Positions 1-20,500 of a DNA stretch of 64,000 bases are shown here, one piece after another (the stretch's first letter is position 1; the number at the start of each line of letters is the position of its first letter). The DNA lies in NCBI GenBank assembly GCA_965202985.1, contig CBDBCF010000001.1, positions 512,001-576,000 on the forward strand, given 5' to 3'. Source of the DNA: Longimicrobiales bacterium (GTDB lineage: Bacteria; Gemmatimonadota; Gemmatimonadetes; Longimicrobiales; Gaopeijiaceae). The position numbers and the translations under genes are program-made. The notes beneath the pieces are model-generated. The model was given only the letters and a program-made list of their open reading frames with translations. It was not told the DNA's origin and did no database searches.

Positions 1-3000
1 TTTCGGCCGCGCGCGCGCAGGTCGTCCTCCAGGAGCTTGCGCAGCAGGTCCACGGCCAAGTTGCGCTGGGGCATGTCCCGCACCTCGGCCAGGAAGTCTT
101 CGGAGAGGATCGACACGTCGGGCTTGGGCAGGCCGGCGGCGGCGAAGATGTCGATCACGCCCTCGGGCGCCACGGCCCCGGCGATGATCTGGCGGACGGC
201 GTGGTCCAGCTCCTCGGCGGGTCGGGCCGAGCCGGGCGCGCGCTTGGCCAGGGAGTTGCGCACGGCCTGGAAGAAGGCGATGTCGGCGCGGATGCCCAGC
301 GCGTAGTCGTGGGGCACGGCCAGGGCGAACGCCTTCGACAGGGCGTCCACGGCGTCGGCCAGCCGGTCCTTGCCGTTCTCCTGGGCCAGGACGTGCTCCT
401 GGGCGGCGGGCAGGAGCGCCAGGCGCTGGGCGGGCGCGCCCTCGGCCCACGGGGACCGGTCGAAGCCGTGGAAGATGCCGCAGCACACCTCGTAGTGCTT
501 GCGCAGCGCGTCCACGGCGGCGTCCTGATCGATGGTCGGGCGCCCCTTGCCGCCGCTGCTCGCGTAGGTGGCCAGCGCCTCCCTCAGCTCGGTCGCAAGG
601 CCCAGGTAGTCCACCACCACGCCGCCGGGCTTGTCGCGGAAGACGCGGTTCACGCGGGCGATCGCCTGCATCAGGCCGTGGCCCCGCATGGGCTTGTCCA
701 CGTACATGGTGTGTAGCGACGGGGCGTCGAAGCCGGTGAGCCACATGTCGCGCACCAGCACGATGCGGAACGGGTCGGCCGGGTCGCGGAACCGCTTGGC
801 CAGCGCCTCCCGCCGCCCCTTGCTGCGGATGTGCCGCTGCCACTCCGGCGGATCGGAGGCCGAGCCCGTCATGACGACCTTGATCGCGCCCAGGCCGTCC
901 TCTTCCCCGTGCCACTTGGGGCGCTTCGCCGCGATCTTGTCGTACAGGTCCACGCAGATGCGGCGGCTCATGCACACGACCATCGCCTTGCCCTCCAGCG
1001 CTTCGCACCGCTGCTCGAAGTGCCGCACCAAGTCGTCCGCGACCAGCTCCAGTCGCTTGTCGGTCCCGACGACGGCCTCCTGCTGCGCCCAGCGCGCCCT
1101 CAGCTTCTCCTTGCGAGCGACTTCCTCGCCTTCGGTGACCTCTTCGAACCGCGGGTCGATCCGGGGCCGCTCGTCCTCGTCCAGGGCCAGCTTGACCAGC
1201 CGGCTCTCGTAGTAGATCGGCACGGTGGCGCCGTCGTCCACCGCGCGCTGGATGTCGTAGACGCTGATGTGGTCGCCGAAGACGTTCCGCGTGTTGCGGT
1301 CGGTCTGCTCGATGGGCGTCCCGGTGAAGCCGATGAACGACGCGGCCGGCAGGGCGTCCCGCATGTGCGCCGCGAAGCCGTCGATGAAGTCGTACTGGCT
1401 GCGATGGGCCTCGTCGGCGATCACCACGATGTTGCGCCGCGCCGACAGCAGCGGATGGCGGTCGCCGTGCCGCTCGGGGAAGAACTTCTGGATCGTGGTG
1501 AAGACGACCCCGCCCGCCTCCCGGTCCAGCTTCCTGCGCAGGTCCGCCCGGTCGCTGGCCTGCTCCGGCGGCTGGCGCAGCAGGTCCTGGCACCGCGAGA
1601 AGGTGGCGAAGAGCTGCTCGTCCAGGTCGTTCCGGTCGGTGAGGACGACCAGCGTCGGGTTCCTCATGGCCGGCTCGCGGACGATCCGCCCCGCGTAGAA
1701 CGCCATCGTCAGACTCTTGCCGGAACCCTGCGTGTGCCACACCACGCCGACGCGACGGTCGCCGGGGGCCGGCGGCTTCGGACCGGCGTCCAGTGCGCGA
1801 CGGTCCAGCACCTCCACCAGCTCGGCGACGATGCGGACCTGCCCTTCGTGCTCGGGCGCGAGGACGATCGGCCGGAACCGGGGGTTGCGGGGCCTCAGCA
1901 CGACGCGGGCGTGACGCCAGCCGTCGGCAGCGCCGCCTTCCGAAGCCTTCTCGCTCTCGTACCGCTTGACGGTGTAGCGCTCGCCGGTCTCCGGGTCGAT
2001 CTCGTCCCGCAGCTCGACCAGCACCGTCTTGCCCTGGCGCGTGCCCTCGACCGGCGCGGCGAAGAGGCACCACGCGCCGTCGGGGACCTGCGGCTCCATG
2101 GACTGCCCGACGACCTGGGCCACGAACATGCCCCGCCGGAGCGGGCGTCGCGGGCAAACCTTCGTCCACTCGAAGTCGTCCGCCGGAAAGCTCTGCGGGT
2201 CGCCGAACGCGCCCGCCGCGGCCTTGAGCGGAACCAGCGGGGCGGTCGTGACCCAGCGGGTTCGGGGGTCGGGCGGGACGACGACGGGGCGGAACGGCCG
2301 CACGGGCGGGGCCTCGTCCTGGGCGGCCTGCATTCGCGTTGCGCGCAAGGTCTCGCCGACGGCCACTTGAACGGCGTGATACTGGTGGTACCCCGCGATC
2401 TTCTTGGCCAGTTCCCCGCTCCCGTCGTCCTCGAAGACGACGAAGTCCCGGATCATGGCGAGCAGGTGCTCGGGCGCGCACAGCCCTTCGATCGCGACTT
2501 GAAGCTGAAGCGCCGACGGCTTGGCTTCCTTGTCCCCGGCGACGGTGCGCCACGGCTTGAACCACTCCCAGCCGCCGGTGAGCGTGCCGAACCGGGCCTC
2601 CACGCCGTCCGACACGCCCATGAACTCGTTCATGGCGAAGAGCGTCGGCAGCTCGGCCTTGTAGGTCTGGAGCTGGCGCCAGGCAGTGTGGACCGTGGCG
2701 TCGGGGTCGCTGGGGTGCTTGAGCTCGATCACGCCCAGCGGGAGCCCGTTGACGAACAGCACGATGTCCAGGCGACGCGTGTGCTTGCCCTCGACGACGG
2801 TGAACTGGTTGACGGCCAGCCAGTCGTTGCTGGCCGGGTGGTCGAAGTCGAGGACTCGGGCGTGGTGGCCGCGGATTCGGCCGGATGCGTCGCGGTACTC
2901 GACGGGGATGCCGTCGATCAGCATCCGGTGAAAGGCGCGGTTCCGGGCGTCGAGGGTGGGGCCGGCGGGGTGGATGAGCTTGCGGAGGGCGTCTTCGTGG

Positions 3001-3209
3001 GCTTTGCTGGGGAGGTCCGGGTTGAGGTGGGAGATAGCGGCCTGAAGGCGGGACCCCAAGACGACATCGCTGTGATCCGAGCGCTCCGACATGGAACCAC
3101 CGGGGGCGATGTCGGGCCCCTCGGCGATCGCCCAGCCGGAGTGGCCGAGCCACTCGAGTGCGACATGCTCAATATCGGATTCGTCGATCAAGAACACCCT
3201 TCCCGCCAC
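1..3209 (-). CDS. hsdR: Type I restriction endonuclease subunit R with an inserted S24 peptidase domain (3' end runs off the window)
   Basis: Hand translation of segments (start, 1681-2420, window edge) gives one consistent frame; absent from the ORF track because there is no stop in the window. N-term [14 protein letters not shown]; nuclease motif [18 protein letters not shown] (~2720-2770); [12 protein letters not shown]; Walker [10 protein letters not shown] (1713-1739); [10 protein letters not shown] (~1395-1420); C-term [15 protein letters not shown]. Start is GTG 3209 or TTG 3191. Confidence 0.95.
1806..2300 (-). other. S24 (LexA/cI/UmuD-like) serine-lysine peptidase domain inside HsdR
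   Basis: In frame: [14 protein letters not shown] (Ala-Gly 2211-2216) ... [23 protein letters not shown] (Ser 2100-2102) ... YTVKRY (Lys 1965-1967) ... [14 protein letters not shown] ... [11 protein letters not shown]. Confidence 0.88.
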
Positions 3210-3440
3210 GGAAAGCAAGGCGTTGGCTTACGATCTGGCAATCTAGCCGGATGTCCAATTGGGAACCACTGGCGTCCCCTCAGGATCACCCGGTACCCTT
3301 CGCTCCCCTGCCACCGCAGGAAACATCCGCTTCAACTGCGAACCACGGTTGACCGAATCGCCATGTCCTGCCACCGTTAACGACCATCACGGGCTTGCCG
3401 CCCGAGAATCTCTCAATACCGTACCCCAGGACCTACGAGC

Positions 3441-4943
3441 ATGCCTACCACCACTTCCCCTACCACACCCGAGCCCCGATCCCACCGACGATGGCAGGAC
3501 TACGAGCAAGAAGTATACGAGGCCCTTCGTAGGTGCTACCCGGATGCCGACATCGTCCGCGACGCAAAGATACTAGGACGTAATTCCAAGAGAAAGCGCC
3601 AAGTGGATGTACTCATCCGAAGCAATGTCGCTGGCTTCTCAATCACCATCGCCGTCGAAGCTAAGTGTCTGTCTCGAAAGATTCATGTCAAAGACGTGGA
3701 GTCGTTCGAAGGAATGATGAGAGATATTGGTGCCGAACACGGGCTACTGATAACTGAGGCAGGATTTTCTCAGGCAGCCATCGACCGTGCCCGAAATGGC
3801 GACTTGAAACTTGAGCTCGATATTCTGAGCATCGCAGAACTGACAAGCTACCAAGCAGAACACGGGCTTCCGTATTCCGGCAAATACGGTGTCAGCCTGT
3901 TTCCGCCCTTCGGATGGGTCGTTGATATTCGTCAGGTACTGCCATGTTGTGCTACTCTGTACCCGCGAGGCATGACCTTGGAAAAAGCTCAGGAAAAGAA
4001 ATCGTGGATGTACGTAAATTTTTGGCATACGACCGATGATCCTATCTCTTCGCTCACTGCGTTAGTGGAACAACAAAACCGCGAAATGACATTGTCGTAT
4101 AATGGCCTGCAGGTGTCAACTCACGAGTCGCCGCCCATGAGAAGCGATGGCATGAAGACTCACATACGAGTTGCTACCTGGCATGATTTGGATGGCAGCG
4201 AGGTTACGGGGTTTGTAGAGTTCGACGGCTTCATCTTCTACGCGGTATTGTTTACCAATGACGACTTTGTAGACAGAAACACCGCCAAACTTGCATACAT
4301 GCTGGCACATGTCCAGCCACTTACAATCGATTTCGACAACACAGAATTGATTGCCGCTCTCGCAGAACAAGCCGAGACGGAAGACGACATGGTCGCCAAG
4401 GCAACCTGCCATTACCGACTATCGTGGTTGTATCATCAAATGGATGATAGGGAAAACGCACTGAAGCACAGGAGGCTTTGTTGGCATTACAATCCAGAAC
4501 ATTATGGAAACATCGTCCCGCTGATCAAAGATGAACTGGAGACTGGTCATCTCATGAACGCCGAAAAGTGTGCGCTCGATTTCGTTTCTCGAGCACCAAC
4601 GAATCCAACAGTAATGCAAGACCTGCTACACGCTTACTGCTCACGTGACAGTTTTATAGACAGTTTTCACAAACTTGTCAGTAAGCTGATGGCCCGGCAT
4701 CGCGGTGAAGCGCTTGCGAATGTACTCTACCATTATGGAATCTATTTTGCAAACGAAGGCGATATGAAGAATTTCCGACAATACTTGACACAGGCGCGAG
4801 ATCTGTTTATCGATTGCAACGTCCATCCCGAAGTCGTGCAGCACATTGACGAGCTATTGCGGACCGTTCCGGGAATTTTTCGAGGAGAAAAAGGACCCTA
4901 CTTGAATTTTGTGAAAAACGTGGGCCCTCCTTATCCCGAGTAA
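3441..4943 (+). CDS. Mrr-like PD-(D/E)XK endonuclease fused to a middle domain and C-terminal TPR-like repeats
   Basis: WQDYEQEV...RQVDVLI...IAVEAKCLSRKIHVKDVESF...GLLITEAGFSQAA is an Mrr_cat-like pattern; helical repeats such as CHYRLSWLYHQMDDRENALKH and LYHYGIYFANEGDMKNFRQYL; GC clearly lower than the flanks. Confidence 0.75.
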   Translation: MPTTTSPTTPEPRSHRRWQDYEQEVYEALRRCYPDADIVRDAKILGRNSKRKRQVDVLIRSNVAGFSITIAVEAKCLSRKIHVKDVESFEGMMRDIGAEHGLLITEAGFSQAAIDRARNGDLKLELDILSIAELTSYQAEHGLPYSGKYGVSLFPPFGWVVDIRQVLPCCATLYPRGMTLEKAQEKKSWMYVNFWHTTDDPISSLTALVEQQNREMTLSYNGLQVSTHESPPMRSDGMKTHIRVATWHDLDGSEVTGFVEFDGFIFYAVLFTNDDFVDRNTAKLAYMLAHVQPLTIDFDNTELIAALAEQAETEDDMVAKATCHYRLSWLYHQMDDRENALKHRRLCWHYNPEHYGNIVPLIKDELETGHLMNAEKCALDFVSRAPTNPTVMQDLLHAYCSRDSFIDSFHKLVSKLMARHRGEALANVLYHYGIYFANEGDMKNFRQYLTQARDLFIDCNVHPEVVQHIDELLRTVPGIFRGEKGPYLNFVKNVGPPYPE

Positions 4944-5152
4944 TCTGCCATGGGAAAGAGGGACTCCAATTGTCGAGCGACAACCAAGGTGAGACGGTAG
5001 CGACAACCAAGATGAGACTGTCGGAGGCGGCCGTGATCTGATGTCGAGGGGTTCGGACGCGGGCTTGGTCCTGTCGTTCGACGGCGGGCCGTCGGTGATC
5101 GTGGAACGAGGTCCAGCTAGTTCAGTGTCTTCCCGAACGAGGAGGAGCGCTG

Positions 5153-6799
5153 ATGGCGGGCCGGCACGTGAACGATGGCCAGGCGAGGCAGTACATGAGG
5201 CGCCGGAAGAACGGTCGTGCGGTGGAGACGGCGGCGGCGAAGGCGGGGTTCGGCAGGGCGACGGGGTACAGGCTGGAGGCGGACGCTCGACTGCCGTCGG
5301 CGAAGCGGAAGCGGCGGGGCAGCAGGCGGCCGGACCCGTTGGGCGGGCTGTTCGAGCGCGTGGCGCTGCCGCTGCTCGAGCGGAACCCGGGTTTGCGGGC
5401 AGTGGCGGTCTTCGAGGAGTTGCGGAGGCTGCATCCCGAGCTGCCGGCGGGCACGCGGCGGACGGTCGAGCGGCGTGTGCGGGAGTGGAAGGCGCTGCAC
5501 GGTCCGGAGCGGGAGGTGGTGTTCGCGCAGAAGCACCGTCCGGGTCGTCGGGGCTACTCGGACTTCACCGCCATGGCGAAGCTGGGGGTGACGGTGGCGG
5601 GCGAGCCGCTGCGGCATCTGCTGTATCGGTTCCGGCTGCCGTACTCGGGCTTCGAGCACGCTCGCGTGGTGCTGGGCGGCGAGAGCTGGACGGCGCTGGC
5701 GGAGGGGTTGCAGGAGGCGCTGTGGGCGCTGGGCGGCGCGCCGGCCGAGCATCGGACGGACAGCTTGTCGGCAGCGTTCGAGAACCTGTCGAAGGAAGCG
5801 GCGGAAGACCAGACGCGCAGCTACGAGACGCTGTGCGCCCACTACGGGATGACGCCGACGCGCAACAACCGGGGCCGGGCGCACGAGAACGGGGTGGTCG
5901 AGAGCAGCCACGGCCACTTCAAGCGGGCACTGGCCGACGCGCTGATGCTGCGGGGCTCGAGGGAGTTCGAGTCGGTGGAGGCGTACCGCGCTTTCGTGGG
6001 CGGCGTGGTCGCTCGCCGCAACGCGCGCCGGAGCGCGGAGCGGGTCGAGAAGGAAGCCAAGGCGCTGCGGCCGCTGCCGGGCGAGCGGGTGCAGGACTGT
6101 CGCGAGACGCGGGTGCGGGTCACGCGGTCGGGCGGCTTCACGCTGGGCAAGGTGTTCTACACGCTGCCGTCGCGCATGATCGGCCACGTGCTGACGGCGC
6201 GCGTCTACGACGACCGCATCGAGCTGTATTTGGGCGCGAAGCGCTGCGACGTGCTGCCCCGCGTGCGGCCGGGCAAGGGCAAGCGGGCGCGCAACGTCAA
6301 CTACCGCCACGTGATCCGGTCGCTCCAGCGCAAGCCGATGGCGTTGAAGGACTGGGTGCACCGCGACCAGCTCTTCCCCCGCGACGCCTACCGCAGAGCC
6401 TACGACGCGGTCGTGGCCAAGCACGGCGACCGCAGAGCGTGCGCCGTCGCCGTCGCCCTGCTCGCGCTGGCCCACGAACAGGGCTGCGAGCGCGCGCTGG
6501 CCGAGCGCATCGACGACATCCTCGACGCCGGCGGCATCCCCGACCCCAAGGCGCTCGCACGCGAGTTCGCACCGCCCGAGCCCGGCGTCCTCGACATCGC
6601 GCCTCGTGTGCGCGAAGGTTCGCTGGACCGCTACGACGGCCTCTTCGGCGTCCGCAACGGCGACGGCCCCGCCGAAGGACCGGCCCCCGACGGCGCCCGC
6701 CGCATGGAAGGAGACGCTCGACGAGCCCCAAGCAGCCCTTCGTCGTGGACGACGCCGAGGTGGACCGCATGCTCAAGGAACTGCGCATGCCCACCATGA
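5153..6799 (+). CDS. istA: IS21-family transposase IstA
   Basis: HTH N-term; DDE core GYSDFT...HRTDSLSAAF...AHENGVVESSHGHFKR; the last ~25 codons look like read-through beyond an ancestral stop at 6722-6724. Confidence 0.9.
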   Translation: MAGRHVNDGQARQYMRRRKNGRAVETAAAKAGFGRATGYRLEADARLPSAKRKRRGSRRPDPLGGLFERVALPLLERNPGLRAVAVFEELRRLHPELPAGTRRTVERRVREWKALHGPEREVVFAQKHRPGRRGYSDFTAMAKLGVTVAGEPLRHLLYRFRLPYSGFEHARVVLGGESWTALAEGLQEALWALGGAPAEHRTDSLSAAFENLSKEAAEDQTRSYETLCAHYGMTPTRNNRGRAHENGVVESSHGHFKRALADALMLRGSREFESVEAYRAFVGGVVARRNARRSAERVEKEAKALRPLPGERVQDCRETRVRVTRSGGFTLGKVFYTLPSRMIGHVLTARVYDDRIELYLGAKRCDVLPRVRPGKGKRARNVNYRHVIRSLQRKPMALKDWVHRDQLFPRDAYRRAYDAVVAKHGDRRACAVAVALLALAHEQGCERALAERIDDILDAGGIPDPKALAREFAPPEPGVLDIAPRVREGSLDRYDGLFGVRNGDGPAEGPAPDGARRMEGDARRAPSSPSSWTTPRWTACSRNCACPP

Positions 6800-7091
6800 A
6801 GGACATGTGGCGGCCGTTCGCCGACCGGGCACAGCGCGAAGGCTGGTCCCACGACCGCTACCTCGCCCAGCTGGCCGAACAGGAACTCGCCGACCGGGCG
6901 CGCCGACGCTTCGAGCGCCACCGCGCCGAGGCCAAGCTGCCCCCCGGCAAGTCGCTCGACAACTTCGACTTCGGCCGCCTGCCCGGACTGTCCGAACGCC
7001 TGGTCCGCGTCCTCGCCAACGGAGGCGACTGGATCGACGACGGCCACAACGTCGTCGTCCTCGGCCCGCCCGGCACCGGCAAGAGCCATGC
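6721..7091 (+). pseudogene. istB: IstB ATPase, 5' fragment
   Basis: LKELRMPTM...EGWSHDRYLAQLAEQE...AKLPPGKSLDNFDF...NVVVLGPPGTGKSH, cut right after Walker A; expected start reads ACG. Confidence 0.85.
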
Positions 7092-7540
7092 GGGCGGTCG
7101 TCGTGGGCGACCACCGCGGCGCGGGCGATCGGCTGCTGGAGAATCGGGAGTTCCAGCGGTCAGCGCGCATTGGGGCTTCCGCATCCGGGCGTGCAGAGCA
7201 GGTCGGGCGAAGACGAAGGGAAGGTCGAGCGGCCGATCAGCTACGTCCGCAGCAGCTTCTTCTACGGTCGGGAGTTCGTCTCCGACGACGATCTGAACGC
7301 TCGTGCTCGCCGCTGGCTCGACACGGTGGCCAACGTTCGCGTTCACGGCACGTTGAAGCAGCGTCCGTGGTCCGCTTCGAGGACGAGCGGGGCCGGCTCC
7401 TGCCGTTGGCGGGGCGGCCCTACCGCTTGGTCGTCCCGGTCGCGGCTCGGCAGGCGGCGCCGGAGTCGGGCGGTCGCGTCGTGGCGGTGGAGCGGCGGTC
7501 TCTGGCCGAGTACGCCAAGATCGCGGAGGCGTCGTCGTGA
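7088..7540 (+). pseudogene. istA: 3' fragment of a second, different IS21 istA (frameshifted)
   Basis: Pieces across frames: MRAVVVGDH...ENREFQR / AHWGFRIRACRAGRAKTKG / KVERPISYVRSSFFYGREF...WLDTVANVRVHGT / VERRSLAEYA. Confidence 0.8.
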
Positions 7541-7910
7541 AGGCGGTGTCGCGCAGAGACCGGATCGCGGAGATGCTGGCGGACTTGAAGATGCCGGGCG
7601 CGCTCGAAGCGCTTGCCGACATGTTGGCCCGCGTCGACGGTGGCGCTGCGACAGCGGCCGAAGCGATCGAGGAGCTGCTGGCGGTGCAGACCGTGTTGCG
7701 CAACAGCCGTCGGCTGGCCACGGTGATACGGTCGAGCCGTACGGCACGCTGTCCGATCTCGTCGAGTCGCTCGACGAAGCTCAGGCCGCCGGCCGCCTCA
7801 AATAGCGGCTCAAGACGCTGACGCACCCGTCGTTGCTGGTGGTCGACGAGATCGGCTTACTTGCCGGTGAGCCGGAGCGCAGCGACGCTGCTCTTCCCAG
7901 CTGATCATGC
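7537..7910 (+). pseudogene. istB: Second istB relic with internal deletion, stop and frameshifts
   Basis: MLADLKMPGALEAL...EELLAVQ...RRL joined to TLSDLVESLDEAQAAGRLK*RLKTLTHPSLLVVDEIG (Walker B); Walker A region absent. Confidence 0.8.
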
Positions 7911-8007
7911 TAGCGCTCCACGTCGTGGAACCTCCGGCCGCTGGCGTCGTTCGCGAACATCACGCCCTCGAATCGCCCGCCCATGAAGTCCGGCCGCCTG
8001 CCTGGCG

Positions 8008-8036
8008 TTGACAATGGTGCTCGATGACGCCACCTT
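8008..8036 (+). promoter_or_regulatory. Putative sigma70 promoter of the DUF2513-like gene
   Basis: TTGACA (8008-8013), 17 nt spacer, CACCTT (8031-8036, weak -10), 45 nt upstream of ATG 8082. Confidence 0.35.
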
Positions 8037-8081
8037 CCGTGACCCACCATCGATGTCGTCTCAGAAACGAGGGCTAGGTTC

Positions 8082-8499
8082 ATGGTCGCGAAGCGGCGAG
8101 AAGACGCTCCTGACATCCACGATCAGTACAGAGCACCCATGATCGCCCTGTGCGATGTAGCCGAGTATGAATTTCCCATCAGCTCCTATGAGACCCATCA
8201 GCTCCTATGAGATTCGAGAACTGGTCTCTCTTTATGAATACGAAGTCGCGTACCGCTGTGCAGAACTCGAGGATAAAGGATACTTAGTAACTAGCGAGAT
8301 CCAGTCGTCATTGTCGCAGGACGTTTCGCCGACGATTGTCGTCAAGCGCATTACAAGCTATGGACGGGACTACGTTCTCGTCGTGTCAAACCCGAAACGA
8401 TGGCCGAAAGTTAAGAAATGGATGGCCAGCTACGGTCTTCCTGCTGGTCAGGTATTTTCCAACCTAATCTTCAAACTGTTTGAATCAGCTAACAGATAG
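8082..8499 (+). pseudogene. DUF2513-like winged-helix protein, frameshifted by a 19-bp tandem duplication
   Basis: Removing one copy of CCCATCAGCTCCTATGAGA joins MVAKRREDAPD...EYEFPISSYE to IRELVSLYEYEVAYRCAELEDKGYL...RITSYGRDYV...RWPKVKKW; family call from the C-terminal pattern only. Confidence 0.6.
8175..8212. repeat. Perfect 19-bp tandem duplication
   Basis: CCCATCAGCTCCTATGAGA at 8175-8193 and 8194-8212. Confidence 0.97.
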
Positions 8500-10034
8500 T
8501 CAATAAGACTGTCCCGAACATTTGCAAGTAGAGTCGACTCGGCGACATTTGCCACTAATGCACTGTAAAGGGGAAACGTCAGTCTCTCGAACATCCTAAT
8601 CGCTTCAATCGGTGGCTGCACGACACGGATGTTAGCAAGTTGTTTCTTGTTGATCGCACCAAACACAGTGCCCATTGCATTATATTCTGTCAATCTATGT
8701 TGGATTTCCCTGATAGCATGAAAAGTAAATGACACGCACCCGGACTGATGGAGTACAGCCGCTAGGCCACGTCCAATACAGCATTTTTCGTATGCAATAT
8801 TCGCATGCCCGACTGGGGCACGAACACTGATTAAGGTACTGCCTGGCTGGGCAATCCGTTTGGGAAGTGAACAATAGACTCTATTCTTCGGAAAATGTAA
8901 GCCAAAATCGGCACTGCCTTGAAAAAATGGTAATCCGACGTCAGATTCGGTCGAGTAAGTGCGGCTAGGTGGAGACTGTCCCATTACGATAGAGTAGCAG
9001 TCACCCAGGCGCTCCACAGTCCATCCTTTCGGAATACTGCCAATATCCACGTTAACAAATTCCTCGGGGAACAAATTTATAATATCTTGCGTGATATAGT
9101 TGATCGATTTTGCTTCTGCGTCATTTCGCATCGGGACAAACCATGCTTTGTATATTGCTTGTATCAGTTCGGTCAGAGTTCCGTCCTGTTGTTGGTTCAA
9201 ATGAATCTTATCATCTAGCTTGGTCAGGACGTGAACATACTGACGCTGTGCAGAAATGGGGGGAATGGAGACACAACAGTCACTTAATGCACTAACGGGT
9301 ACTCTTTGCCTGCCTGATGTTCCTGTCATTTGACCGATAGCATACTGACGTAGCCGACTTGAACGGGCCAAATAGTACGCAAATGTGTCATCTGTCACGT
9401 CCGGTCGTCCGCGTGTGACAATGAACTCGGTAGATCCATGGGCATACTCGGAACCGCCAGACTTCGCACAGTACCGAGCAATCTTGCCGTTTTCGAGAGA
9501 CGGGGTAATGCGCGCCATCAGCGTATCACCACATCGAAAACGTGACCCGGTACCGGCGTATGAACGCTCGCTGGATGATTCTACACAGCGATTGCCAGGC
9601 GTGACGTCAGCCATACCGACAAAAGAATAGAGCTGTCCACGAACAAGAGGTACACTTGGGTTGATCATGACAGCATCACAGTAGCGCATGTCCCTATACT
9701 TGCTTTGCAAACTAGCGCTTCCAGTACTTCGAGAAAGTATCACATGATGTCGGTTGATCACTTTCTGAAAAGCCTCGGGCAAATCTTGCCACACAAGCAC
9801 ATCTACTCGGAACGGAAGATCGCTTTCCGCAAAAGCCTCCTGCAGATCCGATACTTGGTGACGTTGCTTGTGATCGGAAAAGACCACCAAATCGAGATCG
9901 GACTGCGGACGTGCAGTCCAGTTTACACGGGAACCGTAGGCCCATACATCTGTGTCAGGCAAGTACTGCTTGATCAGGTCGAATACTAGACATCTTTCGA
10001 CCGCCGTAAGGTCGATCTCGTGACTCAGTGCCAT
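8448..10034 (-). CDS. hsdS: Minimal nucleotidyltransferase (MNT) fused to type I RM specificity subunit HsdS
   Basis: First ~100 aa: VWAYGSRVNWTARPQSDLDLVV (GS-x10-DxD), ESDLPFRVDVL. Then TRD1 (GDTLMARITPSLENGK...MTGTSGRQRV), spacer (PPISAQ...LDDKIHLNQQ...IPKGW), TRD2 (MGQSP...ISVRAPVG...CCIGRGLAA). Confidence 0.92.
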   Translation of the reverse strand: MALSHEIDLTAVERCLVFDLIKQYLPDTDVWAYGSRVNWTARPQSDLDLVVFSDHKQRHQVSDLQEAFAESDLPFRVDVLVWQDLPEAFQKVINRHHVILSRSTGSASLQSKYRDMRYCDAVMINPSVPLVRGQLYSFVGMADVTPGNRCVESSSERSYAGTGSRFRCGDTLMARITPSLENGKIARYCAKSGGSEYAHGSTEFIVTRGRPDVTDDTFAYYLARSSRLRQYAIGQMTGTSGRQRVPVSALSDCCVSIPPISAQRQYVHVLTKLDDKIHLNQQQDGTLTELIQAIYKAWFVPMRNDAEAKSINYITQDIINLFPEEFVNVDIGSIPKGWTVERLGDCYSIVMGQSPPSRTYSTESDVGLPFFQGSADFGLHFPKNRVYCSLPKRIAQPGSTLISVRAPVGHANIAYEKCCIGRGLAAVLHQSGCVSFTFHAIREIQHRLTEYNAMGTVFGAINKKQLANIRVVQPPIEAIRMFERLTFPLYSALVANVAESTLLANVRDSLIDYLLADSNSLKIRLENT

Positions 10035-10441
10035 GATTCCTCGGTCATGGTCTCATAGAGGGCAGTGGCATCTGCTATGAAATCACCGACGACTCCAAGG
10101 CAGTCCTGCGCCTTAGTGATACTGTAATCGTGAGACGTGCCGATACGGTGCTTAGCATAGCCTAGCCATCGCTCCAATGGACCGTCAAGCAAGTCGTTTT
10201 CGAATGCGCACCGGAGGATGGGTTTGGGACTGTTGGGCACATCTGGAATGCCCAGGACGTCTACCAAGTACCGCTTGAGAACCTTCCACATGGAATCGTA
10301 GCAGGTTTCAAAACGATGGACGACTGATTCCGCAATGCCGTCCTGTGTGATCTCAGGCAACGATAGATCGAGCTGGCGATAGTTCGCGTGCTGCTCTCGC
10401 AACCGTGCAAGGGAAAGGCGGAACTTGTCGTAGTTGATCAT
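10025..10441 (-). CDS. HEPN-superfamily protein (HI0074 / nucleotidyltransferase substrate-binding type), putative RNase toxin
   Basis: [22 protein letters not shown]...SPKPILR...RIGTSHDY (R-x4-H-x-Y); ATGA overlap with the hsdM stop, 10-nt overlap with MNT-hsdS. Confidence 0.9.
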
Positions 10442-12036
10442 CGCGGTGCATCGTCGTTCGGAGGAGGGAACCCCAGTTTCGCCAGGTTGGCCTCGATAGC
10501 AACGTCTAGTCGCCGGGCCTCTGCCACCTGTTTATGCCATTCGGCGGTTAGGCGTCGCATCTTCACCTCGAAAGGCTCGTCTTCCTCTTCTTCTTGGGGC
10601 TCCACACCCACGTACCGACCTGGTGTGAGTACATAGTCGTAGCCGCGCACATCCTCCAGCGAGGCTCTCTTACAGAATCCGGGCACGTCTTCGTACTGAT
10701 CCGTTTCAGAGTCGGTGCGCCATGCGTGGTAGGTGCCCGTGATGCGGGATATCTCCTCTCCCGTGAGTGTCCGGTGGGTGCGGTCCACCATTCGCCCGAG
10801 TTTCCGGGCGTCGATGAAGAGAATTTCGCTGTGCCGGTCCCGTGAAAGAAACCACAGGCAGGCGGGAATCGGCGTGGAATAGAAGAGCTGTCCCGGAAGG
10901 GCGACAATGCAGTCCACTAGCTCCGCGGCCACCAATCCCCGGCGAATCGTCAATTCGGCCTTTTGGTGTGAACTCATTGAGCCGTTGGCAAGCACGAAGC
11001 CAGCCACCCCCCTGGGCGACAGGTGGTGGACGATGTGCTGGACCCAAGCGAAGTTGGCGTTGCCCTTGGGCGGGACGCCGAACTGCCACCGTTGATCTTC
11101 CTTCAGCCGATCGCCTCCCCAGTCGCTCACGTTGAAGGGCGGATTGGCGAGAATGTAGTCGGCCTTGAGGTCGGGATGGAGATCGTTGTGGAAGGTGTCG
11201 CCCTGAGCGATCTGACCCTCGATTCCGCGAACTGCGAGATTCATCTTGGCAAGTCCCCACGTCGTGTAGTTGGACTCCTGGCCGTATATGGAGATGTCGG
11301 GCTTGGCCGACGGCTCACCGTTCGCGGCGTGACCTGGCTCGCCGTTTTCGTTCGGCTTCTGGTGCGCCCGTATGAATTCGACGGACTGCACGAACATGCC
11401 CGACGAGCCGCAACAGGGATCGTACACGCGGCCCTGGAAGGGTTCGATCATCTTGACCAGCAAGCGGACAATGCAGTGCGGCGTATAGAACTGGCCGCCG
11501 CGCTTGCCCTCGTCGGCGGCGAAGCGGGAGAGGAAATACTCGTAGATCCGGCCTAGCACGTCCTTCGAGCGGGCGGCCTCGTCACCAACCATGATGTTGC
11601 TCACCATGTCTATAACCTGCCCGAGACGCGCCTGGTCCATAGACTGGCGGGCGTAGTCCTTCGGCAGCACATCCTTCAGTCCCGGATTGTCGCGCTCGAC
11701 GGCGACCATCGAGTCGTCCACCATTCGGCCGATGCCCGGTTGCTTCGCATTGGCTTTCAAGCGCTCCCATCGGGCCTCGGGCGGCACCCAGAAGATGCTC
11801 TTCGCCCGGTACTCGTCCCGGTCCTCTGGATCGGCGTACTCGTCTTCTTCGAGCTTGGCGTGCAACTCCTCGAAGGCGTCGGAGACGTACTTTAGGAAGA
11901 ACAGCCCGAGGACGACATGCTTGTACTCGGCGGCATCCATTGAGCCGCGCAGGGCGTCGGCCATCTTCCACAGCTTGGCCTCGTAGCCGGTCGTGGCGGC
12001 GGAGGTTGGGGGCTTGGCGTGTTGTCGTGCTGGCAT
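10438..12036 (-). CDS. hsdM: Type I RM N6-adenine methyltransferase subunit M
   Basis: [50 protein letters not shown]; start ATG 12036 assumed (ORF open to 12096). Confidence 0.97.
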
Positions 12037-12443
12037 CGATGTGGCCCGATCTTCTGACTTCTGACGTGTCCGAATCGTCAACATTGGCGTTGCCAACCGC
12101 CTCGGTCAAGCCCTGGCTTGGGGGCCGCCGCCACCGCAGGGGCCAAGCGGGAGCCACGGGCATGCCACGCGGGCCGTCCGTCAGGCGGAGGCTTCGCCTC
12201 GCCGACCTCGCCGCGACCGACGCACTCGGCGACACCCGGCGGGCACAGCGACGTCTCCGGCTACGCCCGATTCGGGGACGCGGGACGGGCTCGGCCAGCG
12301 ACGCCACGTCGCCCCCGTCCATCGTCTGCACCGTCACGCCCACCACCGCGCCCGCCTCCAGTCCACGACCTGCCCTAGCTTGTGACCCTATGCTCCAATG
12401 CCGGTGCAAGATCGAGGGACAGGCCGTGGCTCTCTTGCCTGTA

Positions 12444-14166: not shown

Positions 14167-14760
14167 CTAGTTGGCGAGTCGGGCCAGCAACTCGGCTGCC
14201 GTGTCGCACTCGATGATGGCGTCCGCCGCCGCGTCCAATTCCTTGCGTCCGTCCATGCCGCCGATCAGGCCCGACAGCTGGATCCCCGGCGGCCTTCCCG
14301 ATAGCCCTCGCGATAGCCCTCGCGGCGGCCCTCGTCCCGCAGCCTTGCCATCTCTTCTTCGATCTGCTTGTACATGTCTCTCGCTCCCGGCAAACTGGTG
14401 ATCTTCGACAGTTCTTCTTCCGAACGGCCCCACTTCCGCGCCGCGCCCACCGCCCACGGCGCGAACGCCTGCGCGACCCCGGCGTGTTCGGGACCCGGGT
14501 ACGCCTCCAACACCTCGTCCAGCACGGCCCGGACTTACCCGTGCCGCCGTCTCGCTCGAGCTCCCTCAACCAAGTCAGGATGCGCCGCTTCCGCAAGCTT
14601 CGCCGGGGCGGGGTGCGGGGTTGTGGCGGAAGTCGACGCGCCCCGCCATGTCGGCCTGTCCGCGCGCGAGCTTGGAGGCCGACGCACTCGGGCGCGGCAC
14701 CCCAGCGGTCCGGCCGCCAAGTATCGATTCCGGTGGAAGCGCAGTGCGCCCGACAGACGG
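14167..14760 (-). pseudogene. Degenerate second copy of the Rpn gene
   Basis: 14340-14605 closely matches 15000-15265; diverged QADM.RVDFRH piece at ~14620-14690; internal deletions and frameshifts. Confidence 0.85.
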
Positions 14761-14795: not shown

Positions 14796-15788
14796 CTAGC
14801 TCGCGAGTCGGGCGATCAGCTCCGCGACCGTGTCACACTCGATGACGGCGTCCGCCGCCGCATCCAACTCGTCGCGTCCGTCCATGCCGCCGATCAGGCC
14901 CGACAGCTCCACGGCCACGTCCGCGCCGAACTTCTTGGCCACTTGGCGCTCCAGCCGGATCTTCGCTTCCCGATGGCCCTTCCGATGGCCTTCCGCCCGC
15001 AGCCTTGCCATCTCTTCTTCGATCTGCGTGTACATGTCTCTCGCCTCCATCAAGTTGGTGATCTTCGACAGTTCCTCTTCCGAACGTCCCCACGTCCGCG
15101 CCGCGCCTATCGCCCACAGCGCGAACGCCTCCGCTACCCCCGCGTGCTCCGGACCCGGGTACGCCTCCAGCACCTCGTCCAGCACGGCCCGGACCTTCGC
15201 CGTGCCGCCGTCGCGCTCCAGCTCCCTCAACCACGTCAGGATGCGCCGCTTCCGCAAGCTTCGCCGGGGCACCGCTCGCATGTCAAGCACCTGGTACGGC
15301 AGCCGGACCGAAAGGCCGCGCAGCTGGGGCAGCGTGTGCGAGATCAGGTGGGCGATGTCGAGGAGGGCGTCCCAAGGAGGGGTGCCGTTGTGGACGACGC
15401 AGACGACGACGGGGGGCAGCCGGTGGTCGGCACCGGGCGGCGTCTCGCGGATCAGGTTCTCGTAGGCGTCGGCGACGTAGCGGAGGACGCGGGCGGCCAT
15501 GGAGGGGTCGACACGGGACTGGAACTCGAGGAGCAGGACCACGGAGCCGGGCCGGTGTCGGAAGTCGACGCGCCAGAGCATATCGGCCTGCCGGCGTTCG
15601 AGACGGGAGCCGACGTGCTCCGGGGTGATCTTGCGCAGCGAGTCGAGGTCGAGTTGGTCGGCCCATTGAGGTGCGAGGTAGTCTTGGAGGAGTTCTGCGA
15701 CGGTGGGGGTCTGGGAGAAGAAGAACTTGTAGACCTCGTCGTGCTTGCGGCGCGGTGGGCGGGGGTTGTCGAGGTAGGCGTCGGGCAA
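14796..15788 (-). CDS. Rpn/YhgA-like recombination-promoting nuclease (PD-(D/E)XK, Transposase_31-like)
   Basis: HDEVYKFFFS...LDLDSLRK...RQADMLWRV...LLLEFQSRVDPSMAARVLRY...LPPVVVCVVHNGTPPW; TTG start 15788 with AGGAGG RBS. Confidence 0.9.
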   Translation of the reverse strand: MPDAYLDNPRPPRRKHDEVYKFFFSQTPTVAELLQDYLAPQWADQLDLDSLRKITPEHVGSRLERRQADMLWRVDFRHRPGSVVLLLEFQSRVDPSMAARVLRYVADAYENLIRETPPGADHRLPPVVVCVVHNGTPPWDALLDIAHLISHTLPQLRGLSVRLPYQVLDMRAVPRRSLRKRRILTWLRELERDGGTAKVRAVLDEVLEAYPGPEHAGVAEAFALWAIGAARTWGRSEEELSKITNLMEARDMYTQIEEEMARLRAEGHRKGHREAKIRLERQVAKKFGADVAVELSGLIGGMDGRDELDAAADAVIECDTVAELIARLAS

Positions 15789-15790
15789 CG

Positions 15791-15833
15791 GGGCCTCCTG
15801 TGGGCGCGGGGGTTCGCGGGTTCGCGGAGGCCC
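15791..15833 (-). promoter_or_regulatory. Stem-loop that can mask the rpn RBS
   Basis: GGGCCTCC (15791-15798) and GGAGGCCC (15826-15833) are inverted repeats; one arm contains the Shine-Dalgarno sequence. Confidence 0.45.
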
Positions 15834-15954
15834 TTGGGGGCGCTCCGGGCCCGGGGGAATGGCCGGGCCGGAAGCAAGATGCACCCCGAAATTGGGCGTT
15901 TGGATAGCTGGATCGGCCTCACTTCGCGGGCCGTGGCCGTGCACGGCAAATTCG

Positions 15955-16065
15955 ATGAATGAAATGAAATCAGCTGATTTAGTATACATAATCACACATG
16001 ATTGCAATAACAAGTATACATAAATTCGTTATTTTCATTGTGAATCTAGAATCATCCTGGACAAA
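15955..16065. promoter_or_regulatory. AT-rich divergent promoter/operator region
   Basis: Perfect palindrome AAATCAGCTGATTT (15967-15980); direct repeat AGTATACATAA at 15981 and 16013. Confidence 0.5.
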
Positions 16066-17541: not shown

Positions 17542-20500
17542 ATGACGGCCGTGAAAGACCCGTTGTACCGGGCGATCGAGAGGAGGCTGTCCGAGCGGCT
17601 GGACCCGGTGCTGTTCGAGCGCTGCGCGGTGGAGCTTCTGCGTCCCGTCTATCCGGGGCTGGTTCCAGTCTCCGGCGGCGACGACGCGGGCATGGACGGT
17701 GCGATCTCCATGCCGACCGGCGGACCGCCCGTGCCGCTGGTGTGCACGACCAGCGAAAACGTGATCGGGAACCTGACCAAGAGCTTGGAGTCGTACAAAC
17801 GGTCCGGCCAGAAGGGTCGCGAGGCAGTGCTGGCCACATCCCAAGCATTGACGCCTCGCGAGCGCCGCAACCTTGAGGAACGGGCGCAAAAGATGGGCTT
17901 CGAGCTCCTGAACGTCCATGACCGCCATGATTTCACCGGCCGCCTGTATCGCCATCCGGAGTGGCGTCGGGAACTGCTGGGGCTTTCCGGCGACTTGCCC
18001 GCGCTGTCGGTCTACCCGCGGCTCCACCAGCCCCGCATCCGTTACGGGGGCGACCGAGCGCTTGTGGGCCGGGACGAAGCCGCATCCTGGGTGCTGTCCC
18101 AACGCGACGACTTCGTTCTCGTCGGCCAGCCCGGCGTGGGCAAGAGGTCGTTGTTGCGGCTGCTCGCCGAAAAGGGACGAGGCCTGTTCGTCATCACCAA
18201 CGACCTAGAGCGAATCGCCGACGATTATCGTGCCGCGCAGCCCGAGTTCCTACTGTTGGAGGATGCGCATCTGCTCGGGAGGGACTTGCATCTGCGCTCC
18301 GACCTGCTGTCGGCGATCTGCCGAATGCGGTGGGAGATTGAAGCGTCCTTCAAGATCGCTGTTACCACATGGAATTGGCCTGACCGACGAGTTGCAAACG
18401 CAATCGGTCCAGTTGAGTCGACCAAGACGATCCACCCCCTCTCAAGGCCAGATACGGCCAAAATCGTTTGTTCCATCGCCCCCAAGCTGCCCGAGGCCGC
18501 GGTCGCCGAGATCTTGGACCAGAGCGAGGGTCGGCCGGGCCTGACGGTTACGCTTGCGGAGCACGCCGGGACTCGGAATCCCGCAAGTCGTCTGCACAAC
18601 GGTCAACAGCTACTGGAATACCTCCGGCGATCCTGCGCCAGTCCCGGTCTCACCGCCCGCGATCTTGACGTGCTGGGCGCGTTCGCGCTAGCCGGAAGCA
18701 CCGGTGCGGCTTTCGCCGGCGTCGCCCGTGCACTTGGCGAAGGCGAAGTGAGCGTTCGTGCGACGCTGTCCAAGATCGCTCACACAGGGATCGTCAAGGA
18801 CCGCGGCCACTACCTGGCCATCGTCAACCCAGCACTGCGCGCCGCCCTGGTCGCTCGGACGTTCTTTCAGGGACCGTCGAGTCTCGCCGTATGCGAACAT
18901 CTTGCTGTGATGCCGGACCGGAACAGCGCTACGAAGACGTTGATCGACGCGCTGGCCCGAGGGGTTTCGGCGCCCCAGGAGCTGATTCAATCGCGACTTC
19001 CCGAAGATACGACCGACCCGGCAGATCAGGAACTTTGGCAATGCTATGCTGGAACCGGAAAGGCGGCCGTCAGGTGGATTGTTCACGAACATTCTCGCAA
19101 GATTCCGACCATTGCCTACCAGGCACTGCGTATTCTGCCGGCAACTACGCTGCCGAAGCTGATCTCGGTGATATCGGCTTCGCAGGAGGACGGTGAGCCG
19201 GACCGACAAGAAGACACACCGTCATCGCAACGATCTGTTGAGGTGCTGGACAGCTGGGGTATTGATCCAGCAATAACGGCAATCGAAGACTGGATACGAG
19301 AACCCACGCGTCACACAGTACGTCGCCGCCGCCTGCTCCTTGACGCGCTGTCAAGCTCCTTCGCAGGTCTGCATCAGGCATCAAGGGGTTTGCGCCAAGC
19401 GACGGCCGCGCTCGTGCCCATCGTCTTCTCCCTTGATCTTCGAAGACTTAGGCCGGATCTGATTGAATTGGGGACAATCTGGCTCGACATTCGAGAGCCG
19501 TTGCTCGATCACGTCGAACAAATCCACGCACTATGGGAGCCGTCCATCAACCTGTTGCGGAAGGCGCACGCGGTCGACACGGCTCGCGGGATCGCCCGGT
19601 CATGGGCAACAGCACCCTTGCGCCCCAGTAGCGGCCTTCCTCCCGAAACCGCCAGGGTCGTGCAGGACTTGGCCGCAGGGATGATCACGGACGTAGTGAG
19701 GTGGAGCGACCGTCGCCCGGGCGTTGTGCTGTGGGCCAAGCAGATCGCCGCCGAATGCGACCTGCACGTCGCGGGCCTGCCGGAATCGCCGTCGGATCTG
19801 AAAGAGCTCTTCGGAATCGAACCCGACGACTTAACGCAGGGCCGACAAGACCGGGCCATCCGCTTGGTGGCGGAGAAGCTTGCCAGCCGACCGGCGGCCG
19901 TCGGCATCGATCAACTCCTCCGTTACCAAGAGGAGGCCAGCGTCATGCTGTACAAGGGGACAGCCTTGGGGGCAGTCGAGAAGGTCCTTCACCACATGGC
20001 TGAACTCACGCAAGACCCCTCCGCGTGCGTGGTCGTTCTTGTGTCCCGACAGGCACCTGAACATTGGGTGGCGCCGTTTGTGGACGCAATGCTGGCAAAG
20101 GGCCATGGATGCGAAGAGGGATGGCGGGCACTGCTGGATCGTGACGAATACGGCCCCGTAGTCCTACAATGCGTCATCTGCCGATCCGAAGTTCCGAAGA
20201 CTGTCGAAACATACGTACTCGAGCGACTAGCAGACGGCAGAACGGTGCTGGATATTGTCACCTGGAGAGATGTTCCGAATGCGTGGAAGGAACGCGTACT
20301 GACCCACGAGGACCAACAGGTGGCTGGCACCGCCGCGTGCGAGATGTATCGCCAATACCGGGACCGGGACCGCGACCCCGAGCTTTCAACGTTGTCAAGG
20401 AGGGTGCGAGCGGCATGGCGCCGGGCAGTTGTCGAATCCGACGACGAGGCGACGCTTGCGAGCGTGTTTGAACACCATCCGAACGTCGTGAAGGCGTGGC

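Follow-up and report, generated by a model that had tools for sequence, protein, structure and literature searches.

The closest described relatives of the locus analysed here are toxin-antitoxin pairs and toxins associated with type I restriction-modification (RM) systems. A class I HepT/MntA pair consists of a HEPN protein of family PF01934 or PF08780 with an RX4HXY motif and, from a neighbouring gene, an MNT antitoxin of family PF01909 with a GSX10DXD motif (Yao et al. 2020, PMC7641770). The closest solved relatives are HI0074/HI0073 (1jog, 1no5) and a HEPN-MNT pair of Legionella (PMC11586414). FhepTA places the MNT antitoxin at the N-terminus of a longer polypeptide, fused to its own toxin (PMC13000451). 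PrrC of the type I RM locus EcoprrI is a fusion of an N-terminal ABC ATPase with a HEPN RNase that stays inactive while associated with the RM enzyme and is proposed to be a second line of defence (PMC3710099, PMC12707154). Proteins of the PrrC/RloC type become active upon inhibition of their linked RM enzyme. Ronin is a predicted membrane toxin of 61 aa whose gene accompanies hsdM and hsdS; type I subunits keep it in check and anti-restriction proteins set it off. It comes without hsdR, an enzymatic antitoxin or a fusion (10.1101/2023.04.06.535777).

In the window, i.e. the whole stretch of 64,000 nucleotides analysed, we found a PF08780 HEPN with RX4HXY beside a PF01909 MNT with GSX10DXD and a third Asp, as in class I HepT/MntA. 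The MNT is short and without the extra C-terminal helix like that of Legionella, yet carries Trp at motif position +5, where HI0073 has Gly. Unlike in HepT/MntA, the antitoxin forms the N-terminus of HsdS and is not a free protein of ~80-150 aa, and the pair is placed within hsdM-hsdS. Because the 528-aa fusion lacks a conserved internal start, we class it as a variant and not as a typical class I member. As with PrrC, a gene for a HEPN protein, here a predicted RNase, is part of a type I RM locus; in contrast to PrrC and RloC it encodes a bare HEPN of 138 aa without ABC ATPase, and a dedicated, putatively modifying antitoxin sits on HsdS. The link of a toxin to hsdM and hsdS is shared with Ronin, whereas the toxin here is a HEPN protein and hsdR is linked. 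Finally, MNT is an N-terminal domain as in FhepTA, but its partner is a third party, HsdS, and the HEPN is a separate upstream ORF.

The sequence-only reading of this DNA had described an overlap of hsdM with the HEPN gene, a 10-nt overlap of the latter with a single ORF made of MNT and a two-TRD HsdS, and exact matches to both catalytic motifs, and each of these proved correct. The TGA of hsdM shares ATGA with the HEPN start (10441-10438), the second overlap spans 10034-10025, and the fused ORF is free of stops. These genes and hsdR (Table 1) are all encoded on the minus strand. The type I RM gene set is complete: besides hsdM there are an hsdS that encodes two TRDs and a pair of conserved helices, and a full-length hsdR, which measures 1224 codons from stop to stop in the genome and encodes nuclease and motor domains. 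There is an S24-peptidase-like insert within hsdR. The distance from hsdS to hsdR is 5.2 kb, with IS21-like remnants and two opposite-strand genes in between. A promoter and terminator scan gave no signal exceeding the shuffle background. An assembly join as the origin of the fused ORF was ruled out by contigs from runs X2 and X3, which span the junction (7804/7828-11065) with 0 differences and represent two runs of one sample from another study. Run X5 covered a small share of the locus in scattered pieces, and RNA runs were absent among the runs listed in the search for the locus.

Table 1. Features of the locus; position 1 is the first letter of the window
Feature	Position	Strand	Remarks
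hsdM, type I N6-adenine methyltransferase	10438..12096	-	N6_Mtase and HsdM_N; carries DPCCGSSG and NPPF, both intact
HEPN toxin gene, NTase_sub_bind / HI0074-like, 138 aa	10025..10441	-	
H42-R-F-E45 of HEPN	10307..10318	-	corresponds in the alignment to Q44/E47, the Mg site of the Legionella HEPN
R99-IGTS-H104-D-Y106 (Rx4HxY) of HEPN	10124..10147	-	definition PMC7641770
Fused ORF MNT::HsdS, 528 aa	8448..10034	-	
MNT antitoxin domain, HI0073-like, residues 1-103	9726..10034	-	
G34-S35-x10-D46-x-D48 catalytic motif of MNT	9891..9935	-	
Trp39 (TGG), MNT motif position +5	9918..9920	-	
Third Asp D78 of MNT	9801-9803	-	
Linker, ~residues 104-112	9699..9725	-	low model confidence
HsdS part	8448..9698	-	boundaries approximate
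TRD1	~9695-9270		HsdS sub-part
Central helix	~9269-9024		HsdS sub-part
TRD2	~9023-8610		HsdS sub-part, followed by C-terminal helix
hsdR	1..3227	-	runs beyond window edge
Cargo separating hsdS from hsdR	3441..8499	+	outside module; Mrr-like nuclease gene, IS21-like remnants, DUF2513 gene

Profile searches for NTase_sub_bind, NTP_transf_2/Polbeta and Methylase_S, which had been proposed with that reading, all returned matches. NTase_sub_bind (PF08780) was the sole Pfam domain of the HEPN protein and scored 68 bits (cut-off 31.8), while the protein stayed below the cut-off of the NCBIfam HI0074 model (TIGR01987; 45.1 vs 55.8). Residues 21-103 of the fused ORF exceeded the cut-offs of NTP_transf_2 (PF01909; 33.1 vs 21) and Polbeta and fell short of the NCBIfam MntA model (NF047752; 36.3 vs 60 bits); the Methylase_S match was in two stretches. 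Y106 is the predicted AMP acceptor of the HEPN. The AlphaFold model of the fused ORF showed an HI0073-like MNT (TM 0.87 to 1no5) and an HsdS part in the order TRD1-helix-TRD2-helix. As a single chain it reached a pTM of 0.72 with a linker pLDDT <50 and a low-confidence stretch at 105-110; the fusion of Zymomonas reached a pTM of 0.82 and a mean pLDDT of 94 with a linker block of ~80. Prediction of the MNT domain in complex with HsdM and the HsdS part scored 0.00, without a usable answer. Production of free HsdS from an internal start was rejected as a family feature, with 30 of 54 scanned windows devoid of any ATG and Met present in only 16/102 linkers. M117 of the window's own protein has a Shine-Dalgarno match of just 3 nt.

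The hsdM-HEPN-MNT::hsdS layout is widespread and was found in many phyla. An N-terminal MNT was present in 93 of the 120 best protein matches, the query included, and our survey of the architecture, as the sequence-only reading had suggested, yielded 47 non-redundant fusion loci. A HEPN gene lies directly upstream in all 47 (46 by HMM, L006 by Pfam), the neighbouring arrangement of class I HepT/MntA, and likewise in 14/14 fusions among 80 loci retrieved with an HsdS-driven pattern that contained no HEPN query. GSx10DxD is intact in 47/47 and Rx4HxY in 45/47 fusion loci. MNT and HsdS form one ORF in the contigs of runs X2 and X3 and in both same-genus genomes that retain the RM system. A cultured example, in a harmless host, is plasmid pZMOB01 of Zymomonas mobilis ATCC 10988 (WP_014466388.1 and WP_014466389.1). 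No matching record was found for strain ZM4, whose plasmid RM system has the different gene order hsdR, hsdM, hsdS (Lal et al. 2021, PMC8432527); on both grounds the hsdS deletion made in that system was rejected as a test of the fusion. The fusion proteins are annotated simply as 'restriction endonuclease subunit S'. The expectation that such fusions might already be in databases and lack a functional description thus turned out right: none was described in the literature searched, and Figure 5 of PMC3710099 (neighbourhoods, legend RM_TRD) may show the layout. Among close relatives the TRDs re-assort 2x2 while MNT is constant, which lends indirect support to methylation and restriction at a bipartite site.

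The pair may be a passenger of a defence hotspot, inserted at the hsdM-hsdS junction with its own trigger, independent of RM and fused by mere loss of a stop codon. In line with this, the junction carries Fic, RhuM, YhcG, ORF6N or ATPase genes in other loci, and in unfused pairs on Acetobacter plasmids the order toxin-then-antitoxin abuts the MNT stop on the hsdS start. Linker length ranges from 6 to 38 residues across the family, and well-supported branches show no fewer than 11 changes of the fused state, in unrooted trees that leave the direction, gain or loss, of fusion and of W unpolarised. The MNT-only tree was poorly resolved. However, a neutral fusion predicts neither residues that switch with the fusion state across independent contrasts nor excess toxin damage where W/F is missing.

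Motif position +5 of MNT, occupied by W39 in the window, is Trp or Phe in 39/47 fused vs 1/36 stand-alone MNTs, which mostly have Gly; among loci retrieved with only a HEPN query the counts are 26/30 vs 1/31. When the tree was built without this column, nine independent contrasts gave 6.6 in the same direction, 0 opposite and 2.4 without difference (median p 0.016, range 0.016-0.22). The HEPN was damaged in 4/8 fusions without W/F vs 1/39 of the others (p 0.002, uncorrected for kinship). One MNT subfamily is fused without W, and W/F occurred in 20/104 normal-length short MNT proteins counted without their genomic context. An HsdM loop insertion at 248-260, considered as fusion-specific, was a clade trait for which independent pairs gave no support. 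HsdM columns that track fusion with kinship controlled were not found (top six columns, p 1), and HsdS columns yielded weak, TRD-linked associations only. The distribution of W39 as a fusion-specific residue suggests that the fusion is an adapted state, and a pure passenger is improbable. The locus thus probably holds a functional HepT/MntA-type module that has adapted to HsdS, rather than a passive read-through.

Comparative evidence further indicates that both halves are maintained as toxin and antitoxin. Both genes evolve under purifying selection: across 9 disjoint pairs of fused loci, pooled dN/dS was 0.11 (HEPN) and 0.15 (MNT), compared with 0.12 and 0.18 for stand-alone pairs; as selection and toxin retention are similar in the latter, these values do not set a guard role apart. 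Where MNT is missing or broken, the HEPNs carry active-site changes (L015, L092, L151=L162, L179), a pattern that would be expected of a toxin, with the exception of L169 near a contig end, where the HEPN is intact without MNT. Within a single HsdM clade of 22 rows (support 99), 20 rows are fusions, and their MNTs belong to four or more subfamilies. In 11 of 13 tandem-MNT proteins, several of them near relatives, the C-terminal copy lost a catalytic residue and the N-terminal copy is intact by inspection. In these proteins fresh MNT cassettes were captured in frame while the catalytic sites of older ones decayed. All four RM-adjacent loci with a W/F-type MNT severed from HsdS by IS, frameshift or nonsense (L112, L133, L171, L178; breaks that may be recent or assembly errors) keep E45/R99/H104/Y106 of the HEPN. 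Therefore MNT seems functional without HsdS, and a loss confined to the HsdS part probably leaves the toxin unreleased. The earlier suggestion that loss of hsdS unleashes the toxin would accordingly hold only if the MNT part is lost as well, and the four severed loci speak against it for the HsdS part by itself.

Several of these observations would also follow from addiction, in which a working toxin-antitoxin pair stabilises an RM locus, plasmid or island without any sensing. The fusion would then equate the supply of antitoxin with that of HsdS, Trp39 would be a structural or affinity adjustment of a tethered, low-copy MNT, and the cassette would be hard to delete because MNT holds the sole hsdS start codon. 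Damaged orphan HEPNs, W-type MNTs that coexist with an intact toxin after being severed, the rarity of Met in linkers, the plasmid location in Zymomonas and the lack of a co-evolving HsdM column all agree with it, and the damaged toxins of W-less fusions fit a role of W in antitoxin efficiency alone. Type I systems by themselves are poor at post-segregational killing, which we counted for addiction. In passages of PMC2993543 such killing is listed for type II systems only. On the other hand, an unfused pair protects equally against loss of the locus, and a frameshift in the HsdS portion would abolish restriction yet leave the toxin unreleased. Thus addiction alone fails to account for the repeated in-frame capture and the clade-wide preference for fusion; as a full explanation it is a real, if doubtful, contender.

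Deviations of the window's own copy raise another set of options: the fused MNT may regulate the RM enzyme, e.g. by AMPylating HsdM or HsdR, it may have lost its link to the HEPN, or the copy may be decaying. Both conserved helices of the window's HsdS differ from the family consensus, IS remnants separate hsdR from the operon, and HEPN position 42 is His, where most relatives have Gln. Since this position aligns with an Mg ligand of the Legionella protein, the HEPN of the window may be weaker than its relatives. Yet the same HsdS deviations are found in relative P0004, whose TRD1 differs, hsdM and hsdR are full length, and His42 occurs in 3/97 MNT-paired HEPNs. A role of MNT towards the RM enzyme or an uncoupling from the HEPN is difficult to reconcile with 0/47 fusions that lack a HEPN gene and with the decay of MNT catalytic residues once a new MNT takes over. 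We consider these options very improbable.

We favour a guard role, in which the HEPN would be a back-up for the case that the RM complex is attacked and its MNT off-switch would be carried by HsdS, the sole specificity subunit of the locus, and assign it a tentative probability of roughly 0.4. Of the initial proposal we retain a HepT/MntA-type pair built into a type I RM operon, its antitoxin carried by HsdS; the pair is of class I and the RM locus is complete. Judged by homology, the HEPN would be a toxic RNase, MNT would likely silence it by AMPylation of Tyr106 in an ATP- and Mg-dependent reaction, and the fusion would assemble into M2S and R2M2S, so that the off-switch would sit on the methylase/restriction complex. 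Anti-restriction factors of phages or plasmids, by binding, distorting or destabilising this complex, might conceivably slow the tethered MNT; new HEPN might then stay unmodified, and RNA cleavage might arrest the infected cell. The trigger is probably something other than simple loss of the HsdS part. Plain addiction would need no fusion, which we counted for the guard role, and this role is favoured by the precedents of PrrC/EcoprrI and Ronin, toxins restrained by type I subunits. We also counted for it the constant company of HEPN and fusion, the dN/dS values, the damage in orphan HEPNs and in fusions without W/F, the distribution of W39, the in-frame capture of new MNTs, the variety of MNT subfamilies in one HsdM clade and the exchange of TRDs beside an unchanged MNT. 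Counted against it were the four severed loci, the lack of an HsdM column that tracks fusion, the similar selection in stand-alone pairs, and unfused HEPN/MNT pairs, which occupy the equivalent position of RM operons in 10 of 101 rows and on Acetobacter plasmids. A more specific, widespread and modular form, where a swappable AMPylating antitoxin on HsdS is coupled by Trp39 to M2S/R2M2S, DNA mimics and other anti-restriction factors turn it off and the HEPN aborts infection, is rather unlikely as a whole.

The annotation as 'subunit S' implies that deleting such an hsdS for transformation would likely remove the antitoxin too. To our knowledge few RM guard systems are mechanistically understood. 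What frees HepT from MntA in living cells has been named as an open question (PMC7641770), and the architecture offers a candidate trigger in the state of the RM complex, W39 vs G as a handle, and natural fused and split versions. If the modular form of the guard role is true, RM would be guarded via a covalent off-switch instead of caging, and toxin cassettes would be swapped much like TRDs.

The sequence-only reading had placed a HEPN toxin gene and an MNT antitoxin fused to HsdS behind hsdM, and this anatomy was borne out by coordinates, overlaps and Pfam matches. The HEPN gene and the fused ORF share 10 nt. HI0074 and HI0073 are the nearest relatives with solved structure; for the window's pair, the NCBIfam MntA and HI0074 models scored below cut-off. 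In the structure predicted for the fused ORF, a domain like HI0073 is joined through a loose linker to a complete HsdS. In a profile search this ORF was the only HsdS of its family in the genome, the remaining matches being ORFs of about 930 to 985 codons that also match HsdM. In two sequencing runs of one other sample, contigs spanning 7804/7828-11065 showed 0 differences from the window; thus the MNT-hsdS junction is genuine.

Features of the restriction-modification locus and its neighbours
Feature	Position	Strand	Remarks
hsdR	1-3227	-	full length (1224 codons between stops), running on beyond the window edge; residues ~331-470 Peptidase_S24 (LexA-like; 25.4 bits, cut-off 23.3), between nuclease and motor domains
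Mrr-like gene	3441-4943	+	nuclease with long helical C-terminal part; low GC
IS21-like remnants	~5000-7900	+	rearranged istA and partial istB pieces, dividing hsdS from hsdR
DUF2513 gene	8167-8499	+	low GC; head-on 52-nt overlap with 3' end of hsdS
MNT::HsdS, 528 aa	10034-8448	-	NTP_transf_2/Polbeta and two Methylase_S stretches, all above Pfam cut-off
HEPN gene, 138 aa	10441-10025	-	Pfam NTase_sub_bind above cut-off
hsdM	12096-10438	-	ends in ATGA overlap with HEPN gene
Near-copy of C-terminal part of Rpn/YhgA-like gene	14265-14525	-	separate, after that gene
Rpn/YhgA-like (Transposase_31) gene	14796-16013	-
1149-aa protein	17542-20991	+	P-loop; adjoins AAA_14/DUF4143 gene

The HEPN-hsdS block is itself low in GC, copies related to the IS21-like remnants are abundant in the sequencing runs examined, and another genome (G003) has an hsdR ORF of identical length. 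The Rpn near-copy is reminiscent of the small inhibitor that Rpn genes make from an internal start. The 1149-aa protein has no Pfam match and a weakly nuclease-like N-terminus (PADLOC, E 0.004); its gene is possibly a defence gene.

An N-terminal MNT was present in 93 of the 120 best matches to the fused protein (query counted), 88 of these 93 with GSx10DxD within the first 130 residues. When the first 145 residues served as query, 116 of 149 representatives (50% identity) also matched HsdS profiles. We annotated 205 loci with local profiles, leaving out 8 loci as duplicates and 7 MNT rows as truncated by a contig end; 127 MNT rows reduced to 101 at 90% identity, namely 47 fused, 10 split inside the RM operon and 44 free. 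Named fused loci belong to Poribacteria, Chloroflexota, Rhodothermota, Latescibacterota, Acidobacteriota, WWE3, Zixiibacteriota, Pseudomonadota, Thermodesulfobacteriota and Actinomycetota. Five short loci all contained hsdM, HEPN, MNT::hsdS and hsdR after extension. Plasmid pZMOB01 of Zymomonas mobilis ATCC 10988 carries the operon in compact form, the fused protein being labelled simply "subunit S"; on Acetobacter plasmid pAP1447-1 the genes follow in the same order, but with MNT and HsdS unfused. Two of three same-genus genomes kept the fusion, the third having only the hsdM end, HEPN and a broken MNT. In this remnant (G002, L092:11142-12117), which has no hsdS, HEPN carries Q42R/E45K, and the truncated MNT has GS changed to GF. 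A reverse transcriptase gene of about 510 aa lies directly 3' of MNT::hsdS at L057:2319-3857, L090:9650-11200 and L122:3388-4914, and one MNT::HsdS (P0025, 737 aa) has a DUF559 nuclease-like domain between its TRDs.

The architecture is thus real and widespread, and its proteins stand in databases under generic names. The pair matches class I HepT/MntA as defined by sequence, save that its antitoxin is not a small free protein. PrrC is set apart by its ATPase, which the HEPN lacks, and Ronin by its toxin and by the presence of hsdR here; nor is the pair FhepTA (PMC13000451). PMC3710099, in the part available, states in general terms that HEPN-MNT-type genes cluster with R-M operons. The fusion is not mentioned in the accessible portions of PMC2701414, PMC12839542 and PMC8978831, and a full-text search with subscription papers mostly outside its scope found no description; apparently it is undescribed so far.

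A Met occurs in just 16 of 102 MNT-HsdS linkers, whose length is 6-38 residues (median 12), so HsdS is as a rule not produced without MNT. The HEPN+MNT tree showed 15 changes of fused state among 80 rows, at least 11 on well-supported branches. One supported clade of the HsdM tree has fusions in 20 of 22 rows, with MNTs from at least four subfamilies; the cassette has been swapped in place with the layout kept. Among close relatives TRD1 and TRD2 re-assort in a 2x2 pattern while MNT is retained. Tandem HEPN-MNT pairs upstream of hsdS in L066, L072 and L122, the first free and the second HsdS-fused, are likely intermediates of cassette replacement.

The residue at position +5 of the GSx10DxD motif (W39 in the window, Gly in HI0073) is the strongest new sign that the fusion exceeds read-through. 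Trp or Phe occurred there in 39/47 fused, 5/17 RM-adjacent unfused and 1/36 free MNTs, all five RM-adjacent cases being broken fusions; in loci fetched by HEPN alone the counts were 26/30 fused versus 1/31 stand-alone. By far the best fusion-associated column of either protein, it gave, when left out of the tree, 9 independent contrasts with on average 6.6 in the same direction, 0 opposite and 2.4 without difference (median p 0.016, range 0.016-0.22). Protein-search sets, biased by their Trp-bearing query, agreed, with 67/93 fused and 33/120 short proteins (13/16 with tails running past the domain, 20/104 of normal length and unknown context), and 106/109 scored HsdS-fused representatives. One MNT subfamily is fused with Gly at +5. 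HEPN was damaged in 4/8 fusions without Trp/Phe versus 1/39 with it (p 0.002, kinship not controlled).

HEPN lay directly upstream in 47/47 fusion loci (46 by profile, 1 by Pfam), most of them fetched with HEPN queries; it was equally constant (14/14) in the fusions from 80 loci that an HsdS-driven pattern had retrieved. Over 9 fused pairs pooled dN/dS came to 0.11 for HEPN and 0.15 for MNT; the corresponding values for 15 free pairs were 0.12 and 0.18. Where MNT was destroyed or missing, HEPN was altered at E45, H104 or Y106 (L015, L092, L151=L162, L179), L015 and L092 sharing a substitution and possibly not being independent; L169 has an intact HEPN, but a contig end is only 203 bases away; two further loci were uninformative. 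By our reading, 11 of 13 tandem-MNT proteins, several of them near relatives and four short or without HsdS match, have an intact N-terminal copy and a C-terminal one in which GS, one DxD Asp or the third Asp is gone. Co-occurrence, selection, HEPN damage and tandem-MNT decay, with the AMPylation chemistry published for class I HepT/MntA (accessible part of PMC7641770), suggest that the fused MNT likely AMPylates Tyr106 of HEPN. The Mg ligand of a Legionella HEPN (PMC11586414, in the portion available) aligns with position 42, which is His in the window; among 97 HEPNs, 66 have Gln there, 23 have Lys and 3 have His. This calls for caution on the window's own copy. The genome also holds a second, free HEPN-MNT pair of the Gly type (C1:1185674-1186641) and a further MNT without HEPN profile match (C1:1400054-1400527), and cross-neutralisation among its modules is possible.

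The fused pair may act as a guard, to which we give a probability of about 0.42: attack on the RM complex would slow AMPylation by the tethered MNT, and newly made HEPN would then be free to act. Against this, HEPN is intact in four loci where a Trp/Phe-type MNT is severed from HsdS, so MNT seems not to need HsdS; the trigger proposed earlier, loss of hsdS, holds only if MNT is lost too, not for the HsdS part alone. Likewise, no HsdM column co-varied with fusion once kinship was controlled, and selection on fused pairs is no stronger than on free ones. The hsdM-hsdS junction is moreover a general cargo site, as expected of a neutral passenger, which we consider unlikely. Regulation of RM by MNT, or decay, is improbable. 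Addiction or entrenchment, in which W39 would serve antitoxin efficiency, is a plausible though doubtful explanation, but addiction does not need the fusion. For this reason, and because in-frame capture has recurred, one residue is specific to the fusion, and PrrC and Ronin set a precedent (PMC3710099, PMC12707154 and 10.1101/2023.04.06.535777, in their accessible parts), we tentatively favor the guard role, and we read the fused MNT as an antitoxin adapted to riding on the RM complex.
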